Sequence record: OQ420740.1
DNA: 64,000 nucleotides
DNA from: Escherichia phage B9-1
Direction: 5' to 3' (one strand)
Positions 8,192 to 35,326 of the stretch are shown piece by piece. The notes under the pieces are model-generated. The model saw only the letters and a list, made by a program, of their open reading frames with translations. It had not been told where the DNA came from and did not search any database. The position numbers and the translations under genes are program-made. Within the stretch, counting starts at the first letter, position 1. Each line of letters opens with the position of its first letter.

Positions 8192-9673
8192 TTATTTAAC
8201 GTACTCGATTAATTCCACAGTTCTCCCAAAGCTAGGGATATAATTTTTATTATACCCTTCGGTGAGAACCCATAAAGTATCGTACTTTTTCCACTTGTTG
8301 TCAACAGCCTTTTGTTCAAAGTTATGCTCAAAGTATAGGTCGGTAAGGACGATGACATCTTTTGCATTTGGTATGTTAGCATCCAGATACTCGAACACGC
8401 AGGCGGCTGTTGTGCCCCATGTTGAGTGGACCTCATAGTTGATCATCTCATCGATGTTACCGCGAGTGTATACTTTAACCTCTCCAACCTCGGTTGACCA
8501 ACAGAACATCGTAACCTTAAACTCTTTATACAAATTGCACAACCCGGTGATCTCATTGAACATTTTCTTTAAAGTTCTTTGTGAGATCGATCCAGAAACG
8601 TCTAAAGCCACCACAATATCTATAGTGTTTTCCGGATTACGACCAGGAACAATAACGTGCTGATTCTTGTTTATAGCTCCAACTTTTCGCATTGTGGTGG
8701 TCAAAGACCCAGATCGGCGACCCGGTTTTCTGTAGGTTAACTCAGCCTTCCTTTTAGATAACATACGTTGCTTAATAATATCTATATAATTGATTACAGG
8801 CTTGCCTCTGTTTTTGACAAACTCGCGCACCGCCTCGGGGCAACGACCTCCTGAAGCTTGCATTGCTGCTTCCAACATGTCACCAGAGTCCTGCATGGCC
8901 TGATCTTTATCCGATTGACTGATTACTGGTTGCGGCTGATCATACCCCATAGCCTTTCCAAGATCATCACTAGTGCCACCGTTCCCGCTCATGTGATCAT
9001 CGGTTTGTCGTTTATCTCCTTGGGAGTTCTCTCCTTTACCGTTCTTACTTTTACCGCTATTCTGATCTCTTTGTTTATCAAGAACTGCATAGACGTTCTC
9101 AGCAATCCATCCATGAAACTTCATGTCGCAGTAGCAACTAGCTAAGAAGCCAAAAGGCTTACCTTTTACGAACTCAGTGCTTTTCCCCTTCGGGAAGAAA
9201 ACACAAGGAGGCTTGCTAAAGTCAACCACAAGACCTGTGTTGATAACGTGATCACAAGCAATATTGAACAGTTCCGGCTCAAAGCTTTTACCACGGACCA
9301 GATGATCACAGATAATATGCCCCACCTCATGTGACAGAAGAAAGGCCACCTCTTTCACAGATTTTGGGGAATAGAAAACCTCAGCCATCTCAAACTGCTT
9401 GTCAGTCAGAGATGCTTTAAGAATGGTTTTACGCTCATCTGCCAACCCCATAATGAACTCAGGGCTGTAGTAGATGCGTTTATGGTCTGTTGCCATAGTG
9501 GAGCACCATGTGTGGTTTTCTACGAACTGCAACCCTGACAACAGTGTGCCATAAAACGGCAGCTTTTCAAGAAGGTACATGCGAGCGGCCTGCAGCATTC
9601 GCAAGGCATCATCTTTTTGTGCGGTAATGATTTCTGAACTTCTGCTATCCATTAAAACTCCAGAAGGGGCCAT
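8192..9673 (-). CDS. Putative metallopeptidase (HExxH) fused to von Willebrand factor A domain
   Basis: Track ORF 493 aa; HEVGHIICDH zinc-protease motif; C-terminal VWA MIDAS motif VVALDVSGSIS. Confidence 0.8.
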   Translation of the reverse strand: MAPSGVLMDSRSSEIITAQKDDALRMLQAARMYLLEKLPFYGTLLSGLQFVENHTWCSTMATDHKRIYYSPEFIMGLADERKTILKASLTDKQFEMAEVFYSPKSVKEVAFLLSHEVGHIICDHLVRGKSFEPELFNIACDHVINTGLVVDFSKPPCVFFPKGKSTEFVKGKPFGFLASCYCDMKFHGWIAENVYAVLDKQRDQNSGKSKNGKGENSQGDKRQTDDHMSGNGGTSDDLGKAMGYDQPQPVISQSDKDQAMQDSGDMLEAAMQASGGRCPEAVREFVKNRGKPVINYIDIIKQRMLSKRKAELTYRKPGRRSGSLTTTMRKVGAINKNQHVIVPGRNPENTIDIVVALDVSGSISQRTLKKMFNEITGLCNLYKEFKVTMFCWSTEVGEVKVYTRGNIDEMINYEVHSTWGTTAACVFEYLDANIPNAKDVIVLTDLYFEHNFEQKAVDNKWKKYDTLWVLTEGYNKNYIPSFGRTVELIEYVK

Positions 9674-25941: not shown

Positions 25942-28719
25942 ATGAGCATGTGGTCGTTCGATTTTGAGGCCTCTGGCCTGCTGGAAGACCCAGATCTTTA
26001 TTATCACTGCGGTTTGTTTAAAGAGCTGAATAAGAACCGTTTTATGCTGTTCCTTCCTCTAAATGACCGCACACACTACTCTGAAGAGGATGTGGAGAAA
26101 GCTAAGAACTTCATTCTGGCAAAGAAGACCCTTTATACAGATTTTGATGTTCGCATAGCAGATTTTTCAGAGTTGGAGGGTTGGCTTACAGGTAACTCAG
26201 ACTGGTCACCTACAGCTTTGAACTGTCATAACTGCTACAGCTACGACTTTATGCTAATGGAGAGATTATCCGGTATTCATTTTGATATGTTCCGTGATCC
26301 TAAATGCATGGGGACTATCAACGACCACCAGGTTAATCTGTTCGATACGTTAGCAATGAGTCGAATCTTGTGGCCTGACCGCCCTTTGCCAAAAGGTTGT
26401 CCGGACGCAGTATTTAATCCAGTTACCAAGAAAATGCAGCCTGTTGGGCCTCATGGCCTTATGGCATGGGGCTATGCCCTTGGTAACCAGAAAGTTCAAA
26501 TCGATGACTGGCGTGAGCTTCCGCTGTGGAAGTATGTGGATCGTGTGTTCGAGGACGTTATCATTCAGGAGTTGCTCTGGAAGGAGTTGGTAGCTGAATC
26601 AAAAGGTGTATTCTACGGCAAATCTGACATGCAGAACTTTATGTACGATCCTGCCAAAGAGAAGCCGAAAGGCTTCAAGAAGATCACCTGGAAGAACGCA
26701 TTACGCCGAGGCATGTTACAGCACTTCCTGATGGAGCTGCAGGCTCGACAGGGGGTGTATTTCGACATAGATGGGGCTATTGCTCTACGTGACCGTTGCG
26801 ATGCGTGGATGAAAGAGATCGCTGATCGTGTTGAACCACAACTCCCTTTAAAAGAGCTATCAATGTCTCAACGGCCTAAGTTTCCTGAAAAGCCGTTTAA
26901 CCAGGATGGGACAATCTCCAATAATGGTTGGAAATGGTTAAAAGACAAGCTTGGCTACCCTGTGGACATGAGTGCTTTAGAGTTCAAAGCTCCTCCTAAG
27001 CGAGCATTTACCTCCACAGGGGATGTAAGTAAGATGGGGATAAAATGGTGTGAAGAGATGGGCTGTAAAGACCCCGATAAGATGGCTGATTTCTTGAGGG
27101 GGTATATCAAAGGAACTTCTACACCACACCCTTTACCTAAAGAGCTGATGGATCAGGCGATAAGTGACCTACAGCAGAAGCGAATGCCTGACTGCAAGAT
27201 ACCTATGAAAATCAGCAATCAGGACGACATCAAGCGATACCTGATCAGTGCTGGTTGGCTCCCAACAATGTGGAGAACTAAGGATGTAACTAAGGACAGC
27301 AAGAAGAAAGCTTTACCTGATGCAGATGTTGATGCACGAGTATATGCATATATGGACGAGCTTTTGGAGTCAGAGTATTGTGACCTAATTATCAACTTCT
27401 GGAACAAAACTGATGCTAAGTTCCAGACAACTGTACATAAGTTCAGAAGCTTCCCTAACTCTGAAAGAATTAAAAAGGAAGTGTTCGGGAAAATACGTAG
27501 AAAAGCCAGAGCGCTTATTACTTCTCCGCAACTGAAAGATACGTTTGGACACCTATGTCCGAATCTTGAAAAATTGAACGGAGAGATGGCTAAAGATATC
27601 GTTTTGTGGTTATCATTGCGAAACCGCAGATCGGTCCTTGATCCAATCAAGGAAGATAAGGTCGATACTGGTCTTCTTAATCATCCACGTTTGAAGATTG
27701 ACCACAAGCTTCCTGCTAAAAGTTCTGGATTAACAAACACTTCCAGACAGAAACATAGTATTTGTGCAAACATGCCTAAACCATCTCCTAAAGTGGTTAT
27801 GGGTAAAGAGATGCGTAGTCTGTGGGGTGTTCCTCCGGGATACTTTGAGATCGGTATTGACGGGTCCAACTTAGAGCAGCTCATCGGGGCCTGGGGTGCC
27901 TTTGAGTTTGACAACGGTCTGTATTATGATGTTGTAAGTAACGGGGACGCGCACCAAAACAATGCTGAGGCATATACAAAAGTAGCAGGTAGAGAGGTGT
28001 CTCGTAACGATGGTAAACCTATCACGTATGGGGTTATGTATGGGGCACAAAAAGATAAAGTTGCAGATATGCTGGATATCTCTCCAGAACTGGGGCAGAG
28101 AGTAATTGATGCTCTCTGGGATGCCAACCCAGGTCTTAAGGGGCGCAAAGAGGATCTGGAGAAATTCTGGGAAGCAACAGGTAAGAAATTTATCTACTCT
28201 TTTGACGGGCATGCCATTTGGACCCGCTCTAAACACTCTTTGCTTAATGCATATCAGCAAAATGGCGGTGCATCGTTGTGCGACTTGGTCGGAATCCTCA
28301 TGCACCACCAAATGGTGAAGCGTGGATGGTATGATGAAGGTGTTCGTCGTATTATTTATTACCATGACGAATATCAGCTTCAAGTGCCTGACACCCCTAA
28401 GTATAAAACTGTATACACCTTCGACACAATTGAAGAGCTGGAAACATTTAAAGCCCAACAAGAGGCTAAACTTCATGTGTTCGACGGTCATAAGTACAAA
28501 AAGGCACGCAAAGATGAGGACGGAAACGAAGTGGTTGACAAGGACGGAAATACGGTATACGATCCTATCTTGAACGATGACGGAAAGCTTGAACTTATCT
28601 GGAGCCCTGTGGGCGAAATGGTGGTGCATTGCTTCTGGCAGGCTTCTAAAATGATGGGCGTTCCGTTCCAGATCACAGGTGAATACTTGTGCGGTCGTAA
28701 CTGGGGCGATTGTCACTAA
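25942..28719 (+). CDS. Family A DNA polymerase
   Basis: Track ORF 925 aa; exo-like FDFEASGL; motif A GIDGSNLEQL; motif B GKPITYGVMYG; motif C YYHDEYQLQV. Confidence 0.9.
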   Translation: MSMWSFDFEASGLLEDPDLYYHCGLFKELNKNRFMLFLPLNDRTHYSEEDVEKAKNFILAKKTLYTDFDVRIADFSELEGWLTGNSDWSPTALNCHNCYSYDFMLMERLSGIHFDMFRDPKCMGTINDHQVNLFDTLAMSRILWPDRPLPKGCPDAVFNPVTKKMQPVGPHGLMAWGYALGNQKVQIDDWRELPLWKYVDRVFEDVIIQELLWKELVAESKGVFYGKSDMQNFMYDPAKEKPKGFKKITWKNALRRGMLQHFLMELQARQGVYFDIDGAIALRDRCDAWMKEIADRVEPQLPLKELSMSQRPKFPEKPFNQDGTISNNGWKWLKDKLGYPVDMSALEFKAPPKRAFTSTGDVSKMGIKWCEEMGCKDPDKMADFLRGYIKGTSTPHPLPKELMDQAISDLQQKRMPDCKIPMKISNQDDIKRYLISAGWLPTMWRTKDVTKDSKKKALPDADVDARVYAYMDELLESEYCDLIINFWNKTDAKFQTTVHKFRSFPNSERIKKEVFGKIRRKARALITSPQLKDTFGHLCPNLEKLNGEMAKDIVLWLSLRNRRSVLDPIKEDKVDTGLLNHPRLKIDHKLPAKSSGLTNTSRQKHSICANMPKPSPKVVMGKEMRSLWGVPPGYFEIGIDGSNLEQLIGAWGAFEFDNGLYYDVVSNGDAHQNNAEAYTKVAGREVSRNDGKPITYGVMYGAQKDKVADMLDISPELGQRVIDALWDANPGLKGRKEDLEKFWEATGKKFIYSFDGHAIWTRSKHSLLNAYQQNGGASLCDLVGILMHHQMVKRGWYDEGVRRIIYYHDEYQLQVPDTPKYKTVYTFDTIEELETFKAQQEAKLHVFDGHKYKKARKDEDGNEVVDKDGNTVYDPILNDDGKLELIWSPVGEMVVHCFWQASKMMGVPFQITGEYLCGRNWGDCH

Positions 28720-31499: not shown

Positions 31500-31910
31500 A
31501 TGGTGTCTCCTTTATGTTGTTCAAATAAAATCGGAGATTCCACAATGGAACAAATGAACGATCAAACGTCGGTTGCGATGAACGGGCAAGAACAACCTCA
31601 AGAATTTTTCTTAGGGTTAAGCAAAGATCAAGTGTCTCTTCTACTAGTGCTTTCTTCTTTCATGGGAAGACTTCAGGAGCTTACACAACAGCCAGAGGCT
31701 GAACAATTATTCCAGGCTCTGCGTGAAGAAGAAAAATATCGCCGTTTGGACTATGCCTTAGGTTGGGTAGCTCAACAACGAGATATGCTGATGGCCCTCT
31801 CTGGGACCACGAGTTTTGCAATGGGCCTGTTGGCTCAAGTTCAGGACAAATTAATTCAAGCAGGGTTTGCACACACGGCAAACACTAACGAAGAACAAGG
31901 AGATAAATAA
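31500..31910 (+). CDS. Hypothetical protein (136 aa)
   Basis: Track ORF; RBS AAGGAGA 7 nt upstream. Confidence 0.55.
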   Translation: MVSPLCCSNKIGDSTMEQMNDQTSVAMNGQEQPQEFFLGLSKDQVSLLLVLSSFMGRLQELTQQPEAEQLFQALREEEKYRRLDYALGWVAQQRDMLMALSGTTSFAMGLLAQVQDKLIQAGFAHTANTNEEQGDK

Positions 31911-33136
31911 TGAGCGTTATTCAACAATTCGCTAACCCGATGAATCCGCGTGAAACTGTTTTACTGGCTCACGGCATGATTAAACGTGTCAGCATCAAGC
32001 CTATCAAAGGTGCTGATCCTACAACAGGTATTAAAACCACTGTGTGGCAAGGTAAGAAAATTGAATCCAGCCACACCATCTCTTTACTGATTTCTGAACT
32101 GGACTCCTCTGATAACCTGCTCCAAGGTGGTGAAGAAGTTTGGATCAGCATGGGTGATAAGCTGCTTAAGCCTGGTCATCAAGACTCCGTCTCTGTTAAA
32201 ATTGATGACAAGTGGGAAACAGTAACGCCAGGATGGATCGTAAATATCCCTTTAAAGGCAAATGAGCATAACGGTAAGACCTACTACAAAGGCTCACTGG
32301 CTAAAATGGTTAAGTTGGGGGCAGGAGAGGCTCCAGCAGCTCCACAGCAACAAAAACAGCAACAAGGCACACAATCACAAGGTCAGAAGCAGAAACCTCA
32401 GCAGAATGCCAATCAGGACGTTTTACGCATCTATGGTGATGTGACTCAGATTGTTGGTAACGTGGTTACTGTCAATGACCACAAGATTGGCGAAGGTGCT
32501 ATGGTTGTCTCTGATGAGCAGCTTAAAGACCTAGTGGTAGGTGGTCGTGTTGCGGCTATTGTTGACAAAGACACCGGGAATATTATCAGCGGTTTTAAAG
32601 CCTACCCGCCCAAGGCAGAGAACGGAACTCAAGGCTCTGGTGGTAAGCGTAAATCTTCTTATGATCCTATCGGTGTAGAAACAGGACATAGCATCAATGC
32701 GTTGCAAATCATCCTGGATCGCGGGTTTAAGGTAGACAATCCTTTAGACGTGGCTAAAACACTACACGTTGTCACCATTGAGCTTAAGAAAGAGTACGCT
32801 CAAGCTACCAACCGAACTGAAGATGAAGTAGGTGCCAGTGTTGGTAATGCGGTATTGAACGCTTGTCGCCGTATTGACAAGAAAACGAAAGTTGACGATT
32901 TTGCAGTAGCAATTACTGCAGAGGCAAAAGATGTCTTGACTAATCTTGCTGAACCGTTGTATGATTGGATCAAGAACGGTGCGGGAGCCACTGACCATCA
33001 AGAACCTCAAGCTGCCAAACAGGAAGCTGCTCCACAGCAAAACACTGTAGACGCTCCTCCTGTAGATAATGATGAAGATGACCCTATGGATCAGAATCCG
33101 GCACAGTACGCCTTTGATGATGACATTCCTTTTTAA
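31910..33136 (+). CDS. ssb: Single-stranded DNA-binding protein-like, with E. coli SSB-type acidic C-terminal tip
   Basis: Track ORF 408 aa; Q/P-rich linker; C-terminus YAFDDDIPF matches the bacterial SSB tip; OB fold not verifiable by eye. Confidence 0.7.
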   Translation: MSVIQQFANPMNPRETVLLAHGMIKRVSIKPIKGADPTTGIKTTVWQGKKIESSHTISLLISELDSSDNLLQGGEEVWISMGDKLLKPGHQDSVSVKIDDKWETVTPGWIVNIPLKANEHNGKTYYKGSLAKMVKLGAGEAPAAPQQQKQQQGTQSQGQKQKPQQNANQDVLRIYGDVTQIVGNVVTVNDHKIGEGAMVVSDEQLKDLVVGGRVAAIVDKDTGNIISGFKAYPPKAENGTQGSGGKRKSSYDPIGVETGHSINALQIILDRGFKVDNPLDVAKTLHVVTIELKKEYAQATNRTEDEVGASVGNAVLNACRRIDKKTKVDDFAVAITAEAKDVLTNLAEPLYDWIKNGAGATDHQEPQAAKQEAAPQQNTVDAPPVDNDEDDPMDQNPAQYAFDDDIPF

Positions 33137-33151
33137 CATCTAGTTAACATG

Positions 33152-33179
33152 GCCCTGCCCGAAAGGGTGGGGCATTTTT
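33152..33179 (+). terminator. Intrinsic terminator, same hairpin as at 23006
   Basis: GCCCTGCCC-gaaa-GGGTGGGGC then ATTTTT. Confidence 0.7.
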
Positions 33180-33198
33180 GTATATAGAGGACTGAAAA

Positions 33199-33615
33199 AT
33201 GACATTAGAAGATATCATTGTTAAACCTGAGAACTATGACCAATACAATCTATCAACTCAATCTGTGGATCTTGGATGCGCCACTGTCAGTGCGTGGCTG
33301 GTTAACGGAAAAGAGCTGGATAAATGCTTAGAAGCTCACATGACTGTGAACAAGTTCCTTGATGAAAATACTCACTGGCTGGAAGGTGCAGGTGTATACG
33401 CTTCGTGGCTAGAGAGTATGGGATTTGACTACCAATCTGAAGAGGGGTGGTGGAGCTATCTGGCTATCTGTCCAGAGACGTTGCAATGCTTCATGAAATA
33501 TTCTGAAGATTTGGAGTACCGGGCGGTGGTTGACAGTGCTATTGCCCGTTATAGCCGCAAACCTTTTTCCCATGACATTAAAACTGTGGAAGAATTTGTT
33601 GAAGTTTTCTGTTGA
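33199..33615 (+). CDS. Hypothetical protein (138 aa)
   Basis: Track ORF; RBS AGAGGA. Confidence 0.6.
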   Translation: MTLEDIIVKPENYDQYNLSTQSVDLGCATVSAWLVNGKELDKCLEAHMTVNKFLDENTHWLEGAGVYASWLESMGFDYQSEEGWWSYLAICPETLQCFMKYSEDLEYRAVVDSAIARYSRKPFSHDIKTVEEFVEVFC

Positions 33616-33711: not shown

Positions 33712-33909
33712 ATGATTTATCGAATCCGTGTGAGAGAAGATGCACCAGGTTGTTACTTTGACTGGCGTGGGTGGTGGTTTCTCCACCCAATGGATGGACT
33801 CACAGATAGAATGCTAGATGCTGCCCTTTACACAGATACTGACATAGAGTATAATCTTTACTTGAAGGATGGTATCGATAACGGCCTGTTTGAAGCAATT
33901 CCTGCGTAA
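33712..33909 (+). CDS. Hypothetical protein (65 aa)
   Basis: Track ORF; RBS AGGAGG. Confidence 0.5.
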   Translation: MIYRIRVREDAPGCYFDWRGWWFLHPMDGLTDRMLDAALYTDTDIEYNLYLKDGIDNGLFEAIPA

Positions 33910-33974: not shown

Positions 33975-34400
33975 ATGATTTATGAAATGCCAAAACTGAT
34001 TCGTGACGATGCACGAAACGCCCACACCTTTATTATGGGCAAGCGCATGGATATTATTTGTCACAAAGACTTCTGGGAAGGGAGCTACTTCACAGAATAT
34101 TTTGGAAAAATGGATGATGGCCTACTGATCCAGTTTTACACCGATGCGGAAAACAACATTAGTTGGGAGTTCGAGACCGAAGATGTCCATAAACTTTTCA
34201 CCTTCCTCGACATTAAGGTTAAGGCCAAGTTTGAAGAAGGTGAGTGCGACGATTGTGGATTTTATGAGGTAACGGATTTCTATCTTCCGAGCGGTAAAAA
34301 CCTTTACTATGAAAGCCACTTCGGTAACTCCAATATGCCACAGTGCTGGACTGAGTTTTTTGAAATTGTGGAAGAGGAGCTGGAATATCGTGATTATTGA
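33975..34400 (+). CDS. Hypothetical protein (141 aa)
   Basis: Track ORF. Confidence 0.55.
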   Translation: MIYEMPKLIRDDARNAHTFIMGKRMDIICHKDFWEGSYFTEYFGKMDDGLLIQFYTDAENNISWEFETEDVHKLFTFLDIKVKAKFEEGECDDCGFYEVTDFYLPSGKNLYYESHFGNSNMPQCWTEFFEIVEEELEYRDY

Positions 34401-34848
34401 TACTGTAGAGGGAGATTTAATCTCCCTTTTTAAGAGCGGTGCTGGTCACCTGATCCACGGTTGTAACTGCTTCCACACAATGGGGAAGGGTGTAGCAAAG
34501 CAGATTGCTCGTGAATTCCCTCAAGCATTGGAAGCTGATAAAATGACTATGCACGGTTGCCTAAGTAAACTGGGCGCGTTCTCCCGCTGGGAGCACTTAT
34601 CTCCGAGAGGTATTGTCTACGGAATAAATCTGTATACTCAGTTCTACCCAGGGCCTAATGCTGAATATTTCTCAATACTGAAAGGATTTGAGCGAGTCAA
34701 TGAAGTATTTGAGGGGTCGATTTTACCATTCTACATCCCTAAGATCGGGTGCGGCATAGGCGGTTTGAAGTGGGAACATGTAGAGGACATTATTAACCTT
34801 GCCACTTTTGATATAGATATTATCGTGGTGGAGTACAAAGAGTGTTGA
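34390..34848 (+). CDS. Macrodomain protein (ADP-ribose binding/processing fold); start uncertain
   Basis: Track ORF 34309..34848; GTG 34390 after GAGGAG proposed; motifs HGCNCFHTMGKGVAKQI and later IGCGIGG fit macrodomain signatures. Confidence 0.6.
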   Translation: MIIDTVEGDLISLFKSGAGHLIHGCNCFHTMGKGVAKQIAREFPQALEADKMTMHGCLSKLGAFSRWEHLSPRGIVYGINLYTQFYPGPNAEYFSILKGFERVNEVFEGSILPFYIPKIGCGIGGLKWEHVEDIINLATFDIDIIVVEYKEC

Positions 34849-34902
34849 CAGCTATATTTTAAGGTGGTATAGTCACCACAACGATTAAGACAGGGGAGCA
34901 CT

Positions 34903-35298: not shown

Positions 35299-35326
35299 TT
35301 GACATCTGAAAACTGCGGTATATAAT
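35299..35326 (+). promoter_or_regulatory. sigma70-type promoter
   Basis: -35 TTGACA 35299-35304, 16-bp spacer, -10 TATAAT 35321-35326. Confidence 0.6.

Follow-up and report, generated by a model that had tools for sequence, protein, structure and literature searches.

The gene at positions 34390-34848 (plus strand) of a 64,000-nucleotide stretch of the genome of Escherichia phage B9-1 (OQ420740.1; the whole stretch is called the window in the following) encodes a small stand-alone macrodomain protein, which belongs to the Tk.4/AdfM clade of phage enzymes and probably removes the ADP-ribose that the toxin DarT2 attaches to thymidine in the single-stranded DNA of the phage; we give this reading a probability of about 0.6. 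We infer that thymidine-ADP-ribose on DNA would be the substrate of the protein, that it would confer an anti-DarTG2 phenotype, and that it would be expressed early. The macro gene is an expected new addition to a known family and not a surprise, and the idea itself is not new, as the gene is already annotated as macro domain or Tk.4 in near-identical phages and the countering of DarTG2 has been published for homologues.

Fold and active site

The macro gene and its conserved elements are found at the following positions of the window:

34374-34379, plus strand: Shine-Dalgarno sequence GAGGAG, 10 nt 5' of the GTG, as read from the sequence and kept in the Bas53, Bas54, Bas58 and ECP26 alleles
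34390-34848, plus strand: macro gene, an intact open reading frame (ORF) of 152 amino acids plus stop, with the GTG start at 34390 and the TGA stop at 34846-34848
34414-34416, plus strand: D9 of the conserved G-D motif, presumed to be the aspartate that contacts adenine; neither G8 nor D9 varies in two alignments
34456-34506, plus strand: loop-1 motif HGCNCFHTMGKGVAKQI, residues 23-39, from HMMER alignments to PDB chains
34627-34641, plus strand: NLYTQ motif with Q84 at 34639-34641, from profile alignments to Mycobacterium tuberculosis DarG, TARG1 and BT1257
34744-34764, plus strand: glycine-rich loop IGCGIGG, residues 119-125, the macrodomain diphosphate-binding loop 2

The sequence-only reading had proposed a macrodomain fold for this protein on account of two motifs, the loop-1 motif and the glycine-rich loop, and both are indeed present in the ORF at the residues given above. 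The fold was confirmed. Pfam recognizes the protein as Macro (PF01661) over the complete profile, positions 1-118 of 118, at a score of 32 bits, the cut-off being 22, and an E value of 1.3e-7. An AlphaFold2 model, for which 65 homologues served as input, reached a predicted local distance difference test score (pLDDT) of 96.8 and a predicted template modelling score of 0.91. In a Foldseek search, TARG1, Poa1p, DarG from Thermus and Mycobacterium, BT1257 and SCO6735 were found as PDB neighbors with a probability of 1.00, and the top 50 PDB matches are macrodomains or macrodomain-based designs, save 7d3y_B, a 337-residue complex chain at rank 50. As a profile of the family recovers the same ALC1/TARG1-like set from the PDB with E values of 1e-16 to 1e-18, an ALC1/TARG1-like macrodomain fold is supported for the modelled protein. 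The top structural neighbors are Poa1p from yeast (6LFQ) and human TARG1/OARD1 (4J5R), and the H-x-C-N-C motif is common to Poa1p and the window protein. Unlike the latter, both are eukaryotic housekeeping proteins, and the K84/D125 dyad of TARG1 is absent here, where Q84 and G124 are the aligned residues.

The loop residues predicted to bind ADP-ribose, D9, N26, G120, G122 and G125, are conserved in the sequence of the window protein, and D9 would correspond to the aspartate by which macrodomains contact the adenine. The glycine-rich loop aligns with IGCGL of TARG1 and BT1257 and with LGVGNGG of DarG, and in HMMER alignments H23 matches H23 of Poa1p, while N26 matches N22 of DarG and N27 of SCO6735. 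The catalytic lysine of DarG (K80) and TARG1 (K84) is absent, and its position is occupied by Q84 according to both HMMER and hhalign. With the family profile, this residue aligns directly with a glutamine of BT1257. In a conservation set of 144 sequences, which comprised the window protein and 143 representatives with at most 50% pairwise identity, N26, D50, Y82, Q84, G120 and G122 are invariant (144/144), and H23 is found in 141 of the 144.

Missing catalytic residues had been named in the sequence-only reading as a finding that would speak against an active macrodomain. This expectation came true only for the lysine, whereas the invariant glutamine that replaces it is essential in an active enzyme, SCO6735 from Streptomyces coelicolor. 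SCO6735 hydrolyses the thymidine-ADP-ribose that DarT forms on DNA, its Gln85 is the equivalent of K80/K84, and its activity is lost in the variants Q85A, Q85E and N27S; the mechanism proposed for it is water-mediated and does without a lysine. The equivalence of Q84 and Q85 is transitive, as it combines the alignments to BT1257, DarG and TARG1 with the structural alignment in the SCO6735 paper; a direct residue alignment to SCO6735, with the C-terminal 92 residues as PDB query, covered the glycine-loop region only. The window protein and SCO6735 (PDB 5E3B) share the ALC1-like fold with a TM-score of about 0.75, they match in Q84/N26 and Q85/N27, and SCO6735 is likewise an orphan that does not lie in a DarTG operon, but it comes from a bacterium, and the identity is only about 23%. 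More generally, the TARG1-like class is known to cleave thymine- and uracil-linked ADP-ribose.

Among PDB entries, the best sequence match is the DarG macrodomain of Thermus aquaticus and M. tuberculosis (5M31, 5M3E, 5M3I; profile E 2.9e-18), whose known substrate is thymidine-ADP-ribose on single-stranded DNA and with which the window protein has the fold, the asparagine and the glycine-rich loop in common. The NCBIfam and PADLOC models for DarG match the window protein through their macro half only. The cut-off of the DarG equivalog model NF048014 is not reached, with 47 bits against 250, and the match covers profile positions 3-143 of 338, as the protein stops at residue 152. The gene product consists of the macro domain only and lacks the C-terminal domain by which DarG binds DarT. 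A darT gene next to the macro gene was not found, the neighboring ORFs being without a Pfam, PADLOC or informative PHROG match. Because the catalytic lysine (K80, here Q84), the DarT-binding domain and an adjacent darT are all missing and the equivalog score is so low, the window protein is by its sequence a glutamine-type member of the ALC1/TARG1-like class and not a DarG, although it would act in the manner of the DarG macro half.

T4 Tk.4 and the proposed function

Over the 4 kb around the gene, the identity to Escherichia phage vB_EcoM-ECP26 is 99%, and at least 80% is reached by 151 phage records, nearly all of them from Vequintavirus (rV5-like phages). ECP26 annotates the same 459-nt coding sequence as "macro domain protein" and rV5 as "Tk.4 conserved hypothetical protein", while other records use "phosphatase" or "Poa1p-like". 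The family reaches far beyond this genus: tblastn found homologues of the window protein in 2,809 of 50,697 phage records, and 1,461 cluster representatives belong to it at E <= 1e-30. The identity of the window protein amounts to 94% with bas58_0093 of Bas58, to 80% with the allele of Bas54, to 70% with Tk.4 of Krischvirus phage Phi1, the gene of which lies in the canonical regB-vs.1-vs-tk.4-tk position, and to 41-43% with Tk.4 of T4 and T2 (for T4, 41% with an E value of 7e-43 and residues 1-150 against 1-152).

In a neighbor-joining tree of 11 taxa and 152 columns, with AdfM of phage PhiKZ as outgroup, the window protein groups with Tk.4 of T4, Raoultella phage and Krischvirus (96% bootstrap), separate from a clade of NARP1-linked Adpp proteins (89%). 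Both clades also differ in their motifs. The Tk.4 clade, including the window protein, has HGCNCF, NLYTQF-PGPN and GCGIGG, whereas the NARP1-linked clade has HQxNCF, NxYGQYxW with a loop insertion, and GCGLAGG; the isoelectric point fails to separate the two. With T4 Tk.4 the window protein thus has in common its size, the single domain, which is 41% identical from end to end, the clade, the motifs HGCNCFHTMG, NLYTQ-PGPN and P-IG-GIG, and the setting, as both genes lie among small early genes in myoviruses of E. coli that are large and lytic. The phages differ in that T4 belongs to the Straboviridae and B9-1 to the Vequintavirinae, and in that the window lacks the regB-vs-tk synteny and its macro gene overlaps an unrelated 141-aa ORF.

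For T4, the HIDEN-SEQ preprint reports that tk.4 was the single gene depleted on DarTG2 hosts and that a clean tk.4 knockout was sensitised to DarTG2 (10.1101/2025.11.20.689424). It is because of this sensitisation that the gene was there named adfM, for anti-DarT factor Macrodomain. The literature search found no functional work on Tk.4 beyond this preprint. The same preprint describes the Bas54 orthologue, bas54_0092, as non-essential on E. coli K-12, with insertions at 31 of 31 TA sites (10.1101/2025.11.20.689424), and such full tolerance on a host without DarTG is what would be expected of a conditional counter-defence gene. The reversal of defence-imposed ADP-ribosylation, as suggested from the sequence alone, therefore gains support by homology, as T4 needs Tk.4/AdfM to resist DarTG2.

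In the function that we propose, the macro protein would be made early from host-type promoters, and its ligand would be the ADP-ribose placed by the host toxin DarT2 on the N3 of thymidine in single-stranded phage DNA. The C1''-N glycosidic bond would then be hydrolysed and free ADP-ribose released, so that replication and transcription of the phage could continue. The chemistry may be the lysine-independent one of SCO6735, in which N26 would hold Q84, Q84 would position the distal ribose, and water would cleave the bond. We favor this AdfM function because Adps and Namat genes are missing from the window and from the complete NHEP1 genome (see below), because the protein groups with the Tk.4 clade, which in such a small tree is supportive and not decisive, and because it carries the clade-specific motifs.

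Some observations weigh against this assignment. The anti-DarTG2 phenotype has been shown for T4 only and in one preprint, in which the enzymatic removal by Tk.4 is itself deduced. The identity to T4 Tk.4 is just 41%, and the placement in the clade depends on the 11-taxon tree mentioned above. As Adpp shares H23, N26 and Q84 and yet acts on ADP-ribose-1''-phosphate, the sequence cannot fix the substrate. Also, in one comparison with a clinical isolate given in the preprint, bas54_0092 was without significant depletion (log2 fold change 0.42, q = 1) (10.1101/2025.11.20.689424).

The name AdfM has in fact been given twice. PhiKZ gp104, a chimallivirus macrodomain that was independently named AdfM, removes DarT2-derived ADP-ribose from DNA in vitro (PMC13309987). 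It is like the window protein a phage-encoded stand-alone macrodomain, but the two share only about 24% identity (E 2e-5). The PhiKZ protein belongs to the lysine type, with N23/K78 and an FPTK motif as in DarG2, and is directed to the phage nucleus. As the FPTK motif was misaligned by MAFFT, hhalign was used for this protein, and it aligns K78 with Q84. By its sequence, the chimallivirus AdfM seems to form a lineage of its own within the macrodomain class. At present, "AdfM" stands both for the lysine-type macrodomains of chimalliviruses and for the glutamine-type ones of T-even and rV5-like phages, which are two separate lineages.

If the assignment is true, phages of the rV5 type, much favored for biocontrol and therapy of E. 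coli O157, carry a ready-made counter to DarTG2, and this would help to predict their host range on DarTG-bearing strains.

Alternative substrates

The nearest biochemical precedent for a different substrate is Adpp of Vibrio phage Gary. The purified protein is a phosphatase of ADP-ribose-1''-phosphate (ADPR-1P), the product of the RES-type NAD+ phosphorolysis by aRES, and its activity lets NARP1 rebuild NAD+ (10.64898/2026.01.28.702374). It also provides, by analogy within the family, a precedent for the processing of NAD-derived signals that had been considered from the sequence alone, as ADPR-1P is here converted to ADP-ribose against a defence system. Gary Adpp belongs to the same PHROG and the same Poa1p-like family as the window protein, is about 35% identical to it, and is identical in H23, N26, D50, Y82 and Q84. 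It differs in that its gene sits between Adps and Namat, in its separate clade, in the YGQY motif with a loop insertion, and in the GCGLAGG loop. Several family members of Vibrio and Pseudomonas phages lie in the same way between or beside genes annotated as ribose-phosphate pyrophosphokinase and nicotinamide phosphoribosyltransferase, which are the Adps and Namat of NARP1; examples are Vibrio phage Achelous (106176-109182), Pseudomonas phage Ps12 and Vibrio phage VPMCC14. In VPMCC14, the macro gene between Adps and Namat appears as two short ORFs, a split that may reflect decay.

It could thus be argued that the window protein is mainly an Adpp/Poa1p-like phosphatase that turns the aRES product into ADP-ribose. 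PHROG 335, which it matches with an E value of 1e-60, is labelled "phosphatase"; Poa1p is among its best structural and sequence matches, and H23 aligns with the Poa1p histidine that was mutated in the H23A structure 6lfs; and the Achelous homologue, with 98.7% identity practically the Adpp of Gary, has all invariant residues in common with the window protein at an identity of about 35%. However, when Adps and Namat of Achelous were sought by tblastn in the window and the complete NHEP1 genome, the best E values were only 0.24 and 2.4, and none is annotated there. As Adpp is useful only together with NARP1, the pathway role of Adpp is not available without these genes. The window protein also belongs to the Tk.4 clade with its motif set and not to the NARP1-linked clade, and T4 presumably carries Tk.4 without NARP1. 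We therefore regard a mainly phosphatase role as unlikely. AdfM and Adpp would both cleave at the C1'' position of the distal ribose. About as doubtful, in our opinion, is the broader idea that a glutamine-type macrodomain like Tk.4 is a general eraser at this position, acting on thymidine-ADP-ribose in DNA, on ADPR-1P, and perhaps on uracil-linked ADP-ribose in RNA or on histidine-ADP-ribose (His-ADPR). If true, one small early gene would blunt several NAD-based defences. T4 AdfM and the Adpp of NARP1-AP form one family with identical residues at the catalytic positions, so that the substrate range of the glutamine type is a question that can be tested cheaply.

Products of other enzymes than DarT have to be considered as well, namely O-acetyl-ADP-ribose formed by a phage Sir2 protein, or ADP-ribose on proteins or, linked to uracil, on RNA. 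TARG1, the top structural match, is also named O-acetyl-ADP-ribose deacetylase 1; a member of the Sir2 family (60.5 bits with Pfam) is present in the close relative NHEP1; and TARG1-like enzymes, including the glutamine-type SCO6735, cleave uracil-ADP-ribose on RNA and glutamate-linked ADP-ribose on proteins. But the Sir2 gene of NHEP1 is about 50 kb away from its macro gene and outside the window, and the macro family presumably occurs in many phages without Sir2, T4 included. No ADP-ribosyltransferase was found with Pfam among the 31 window ORFs that were scanned, which comprised the neighbors of the macro gene and the larger unannotated ORFs. SCO6735 was inactive on RNA that is ADP-ribosylated at the 2'-OH, and the paper describing it is internally inconsistent on 5'-phosphate-linked substrates. 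All in all, we think that such a role is very improbable.

Hardly to be expected is a protein that binds or degrades immune signals derived from ADP-ribose, such as the His-ADPR of type II Thoeris or cyclic ADP-ribose isomers, or that blocks DarT2 simply by binding. His-ADPR is bound by the macrodomains of the Thoeris II effector ThsA and, being C1''-N-linked, seems chemically akin to thymidine-ADP-ribose, and catalytically dead SCO6735 still inhibits DarT through interaction. However, the literature searched holds no precedent for a phage macrodomain that acts on Thoeris signals, a role of a macro domain was not found in the RyR/Thoeris preprints, and the DarT-binding domain of DarG is absent from the window protein. 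The strict conservation of N26 and Q84 also argues for catalysis over sequestration.

Translation start, alleles and surroundings

The start at the GTG 34390 is preferred because of the GAGGAG site, the identical start context across the Vequintavirus alleles and the alignment with the Tk.4 proteins from residue 1 on. The context GAGGAG-N10-GTGATTATTGATACT is constant across all Vequintavirus alleles examined, the N-terminus of Krischvirus Tk.4 reads ATGATTATTGATACT, and residue 1 of the window protein aligns with residue 1 of Tk.4 from both T4 and Krischvirus. An ATG at 34309, which would give the 179-aa ORF annotated in NHEP1, was rejected, as it entails an overlap of 92 nt with the upstream gene, the resulting extension is without homologue, and GAGGAG-N10-GTG is kept in all alleles.

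The macro gene is more divergent than its surroundings. Compared with Bas54 (MZ501093.1, 78894-79352), it has a DNA identity of 76%, while the flanking genes have 87-97%, and the synonymous divergence (dS) is 1.49 at a ratio of non-synonymous to synonymous divergence (dN/dS) of 0.095, while four flanking genes have dS values of 0.04-0.63. Two groups of alleles occur across Vequintavirus, with about 91-99% and about 75-78% identity to the window copy, and outside of this genus the nearest relatives are the Krischvirus tk.4 genes with the protein identity of 70% given above, which suggests from the sequences an exchange between unrelated E. coli myoviruses. Positive selection was rejected as the source of the local divergence on account of the low dN/dS at such a high dS, and these values rather indicate an old recombined-in allele under strong purifying selection than rapid adaptive change. 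Under the general-eraser idea mentioned above, the two deeply diverged alleles at one locus could represent a tuning to different host toxins.

Further elements around the gene are the following:

33827-33855, plus strand: sigma-70-like promoter match TTTACA-17-TATAAT (11/12), from a consensus scan only; candidate promoter for the two-gene unit
33975-34400, plus strand: upstream ORF of 141 aa, phrog_8157, unknown function, the stop of which overlaps the macro start by 11 nt
34845-34873, plus strand: sigma-70-like promoter match TTGACA-17-TATAGT with TG, from a consensus scan only; begins at the macro stop codon

The macro gene lies downstream of a block of helicase, primase-helicase and DNA polymerase genes, in a long same-strand run of small ORFs that belong to PHROGs of unknown function. 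The 141-aa ORF has no Pfam or PADLOC match, and because of the 11-nt overlap both genes are probably co-transcribed and translationally coupled. This pair is kept in all Vequintaviruses checked (ECP26, NHEP1, Bas53, Bas54 and Bas58), whereas T-even and Krischvirus phages have no 141-aa ORF of this kind in front of tk.4. Between 31000 and 38000 of the window, 28 near-consensus sigma-70 matches were counted against 13.1 +/- 4.1 expected, most of them on the plus strand before small ORFs, and the match at 35299-35326 is perfect (12/12). This excess makes an early expression from the host RNA polymerase plausible; the match that begins at the macro stop codon probably serves the next small gene. 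When ADP-ribosyltransferases, NADAR, Adps, Namat and DarT were sought with Pfam and PHROG in the 20-30 neighboring ORFs, only families of unknown function and one domain of unknown function (DUF) were obtained.

A hot spot for the insertion of mobile nucleases precedes the macro gene by about 1.2 kb. Bas54 carries a "putative homing endonuclease", bas54_0088 (L010 3015-3638), between the homologues of the window ORFs at 31910-33136 and 33199-33615, and the window lacks it (approximately 33132-33198); in several relatives the 4-kb stretch gives a two-piece match and contains an "endonuclease VII" gene. The DNA polymerase ORF of the window (25942-28719) encodes 925 aa, while 1,248 aa are annotated in NHEP1 (L002 11975-15721). 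The difference is in-frame and amounts to 969 nt with both flanks matching, which suggests an intein or another insertion in the NHEP1 gene.

On the minus strand of the window, 8192-9673 encodes a 492-aa protein with a DUF2201_N domain (putative metallopeptidase) and a VWA-like DUF2201 domain; for Bas54, the MoxR ATPase gene bas54_0063 has been reported to be needed against the predicted defence system DS-28. The Sir2-family protein of NHEP1 is encoded outside the window, in the stretch PQ511146.1 14696-18549. Its gene neighbors there code for an RNA ligase of the Rnl1 type, an ATPase, a phosphoesterase that resembles calcineurin, and a "nucleotide pyrophosphohydrolase" without Pfam match. In Vibrio phage Achelous, a similar set of RNA ligase, ATPase and phosphoesterase precedes the NARP1-AP operon.

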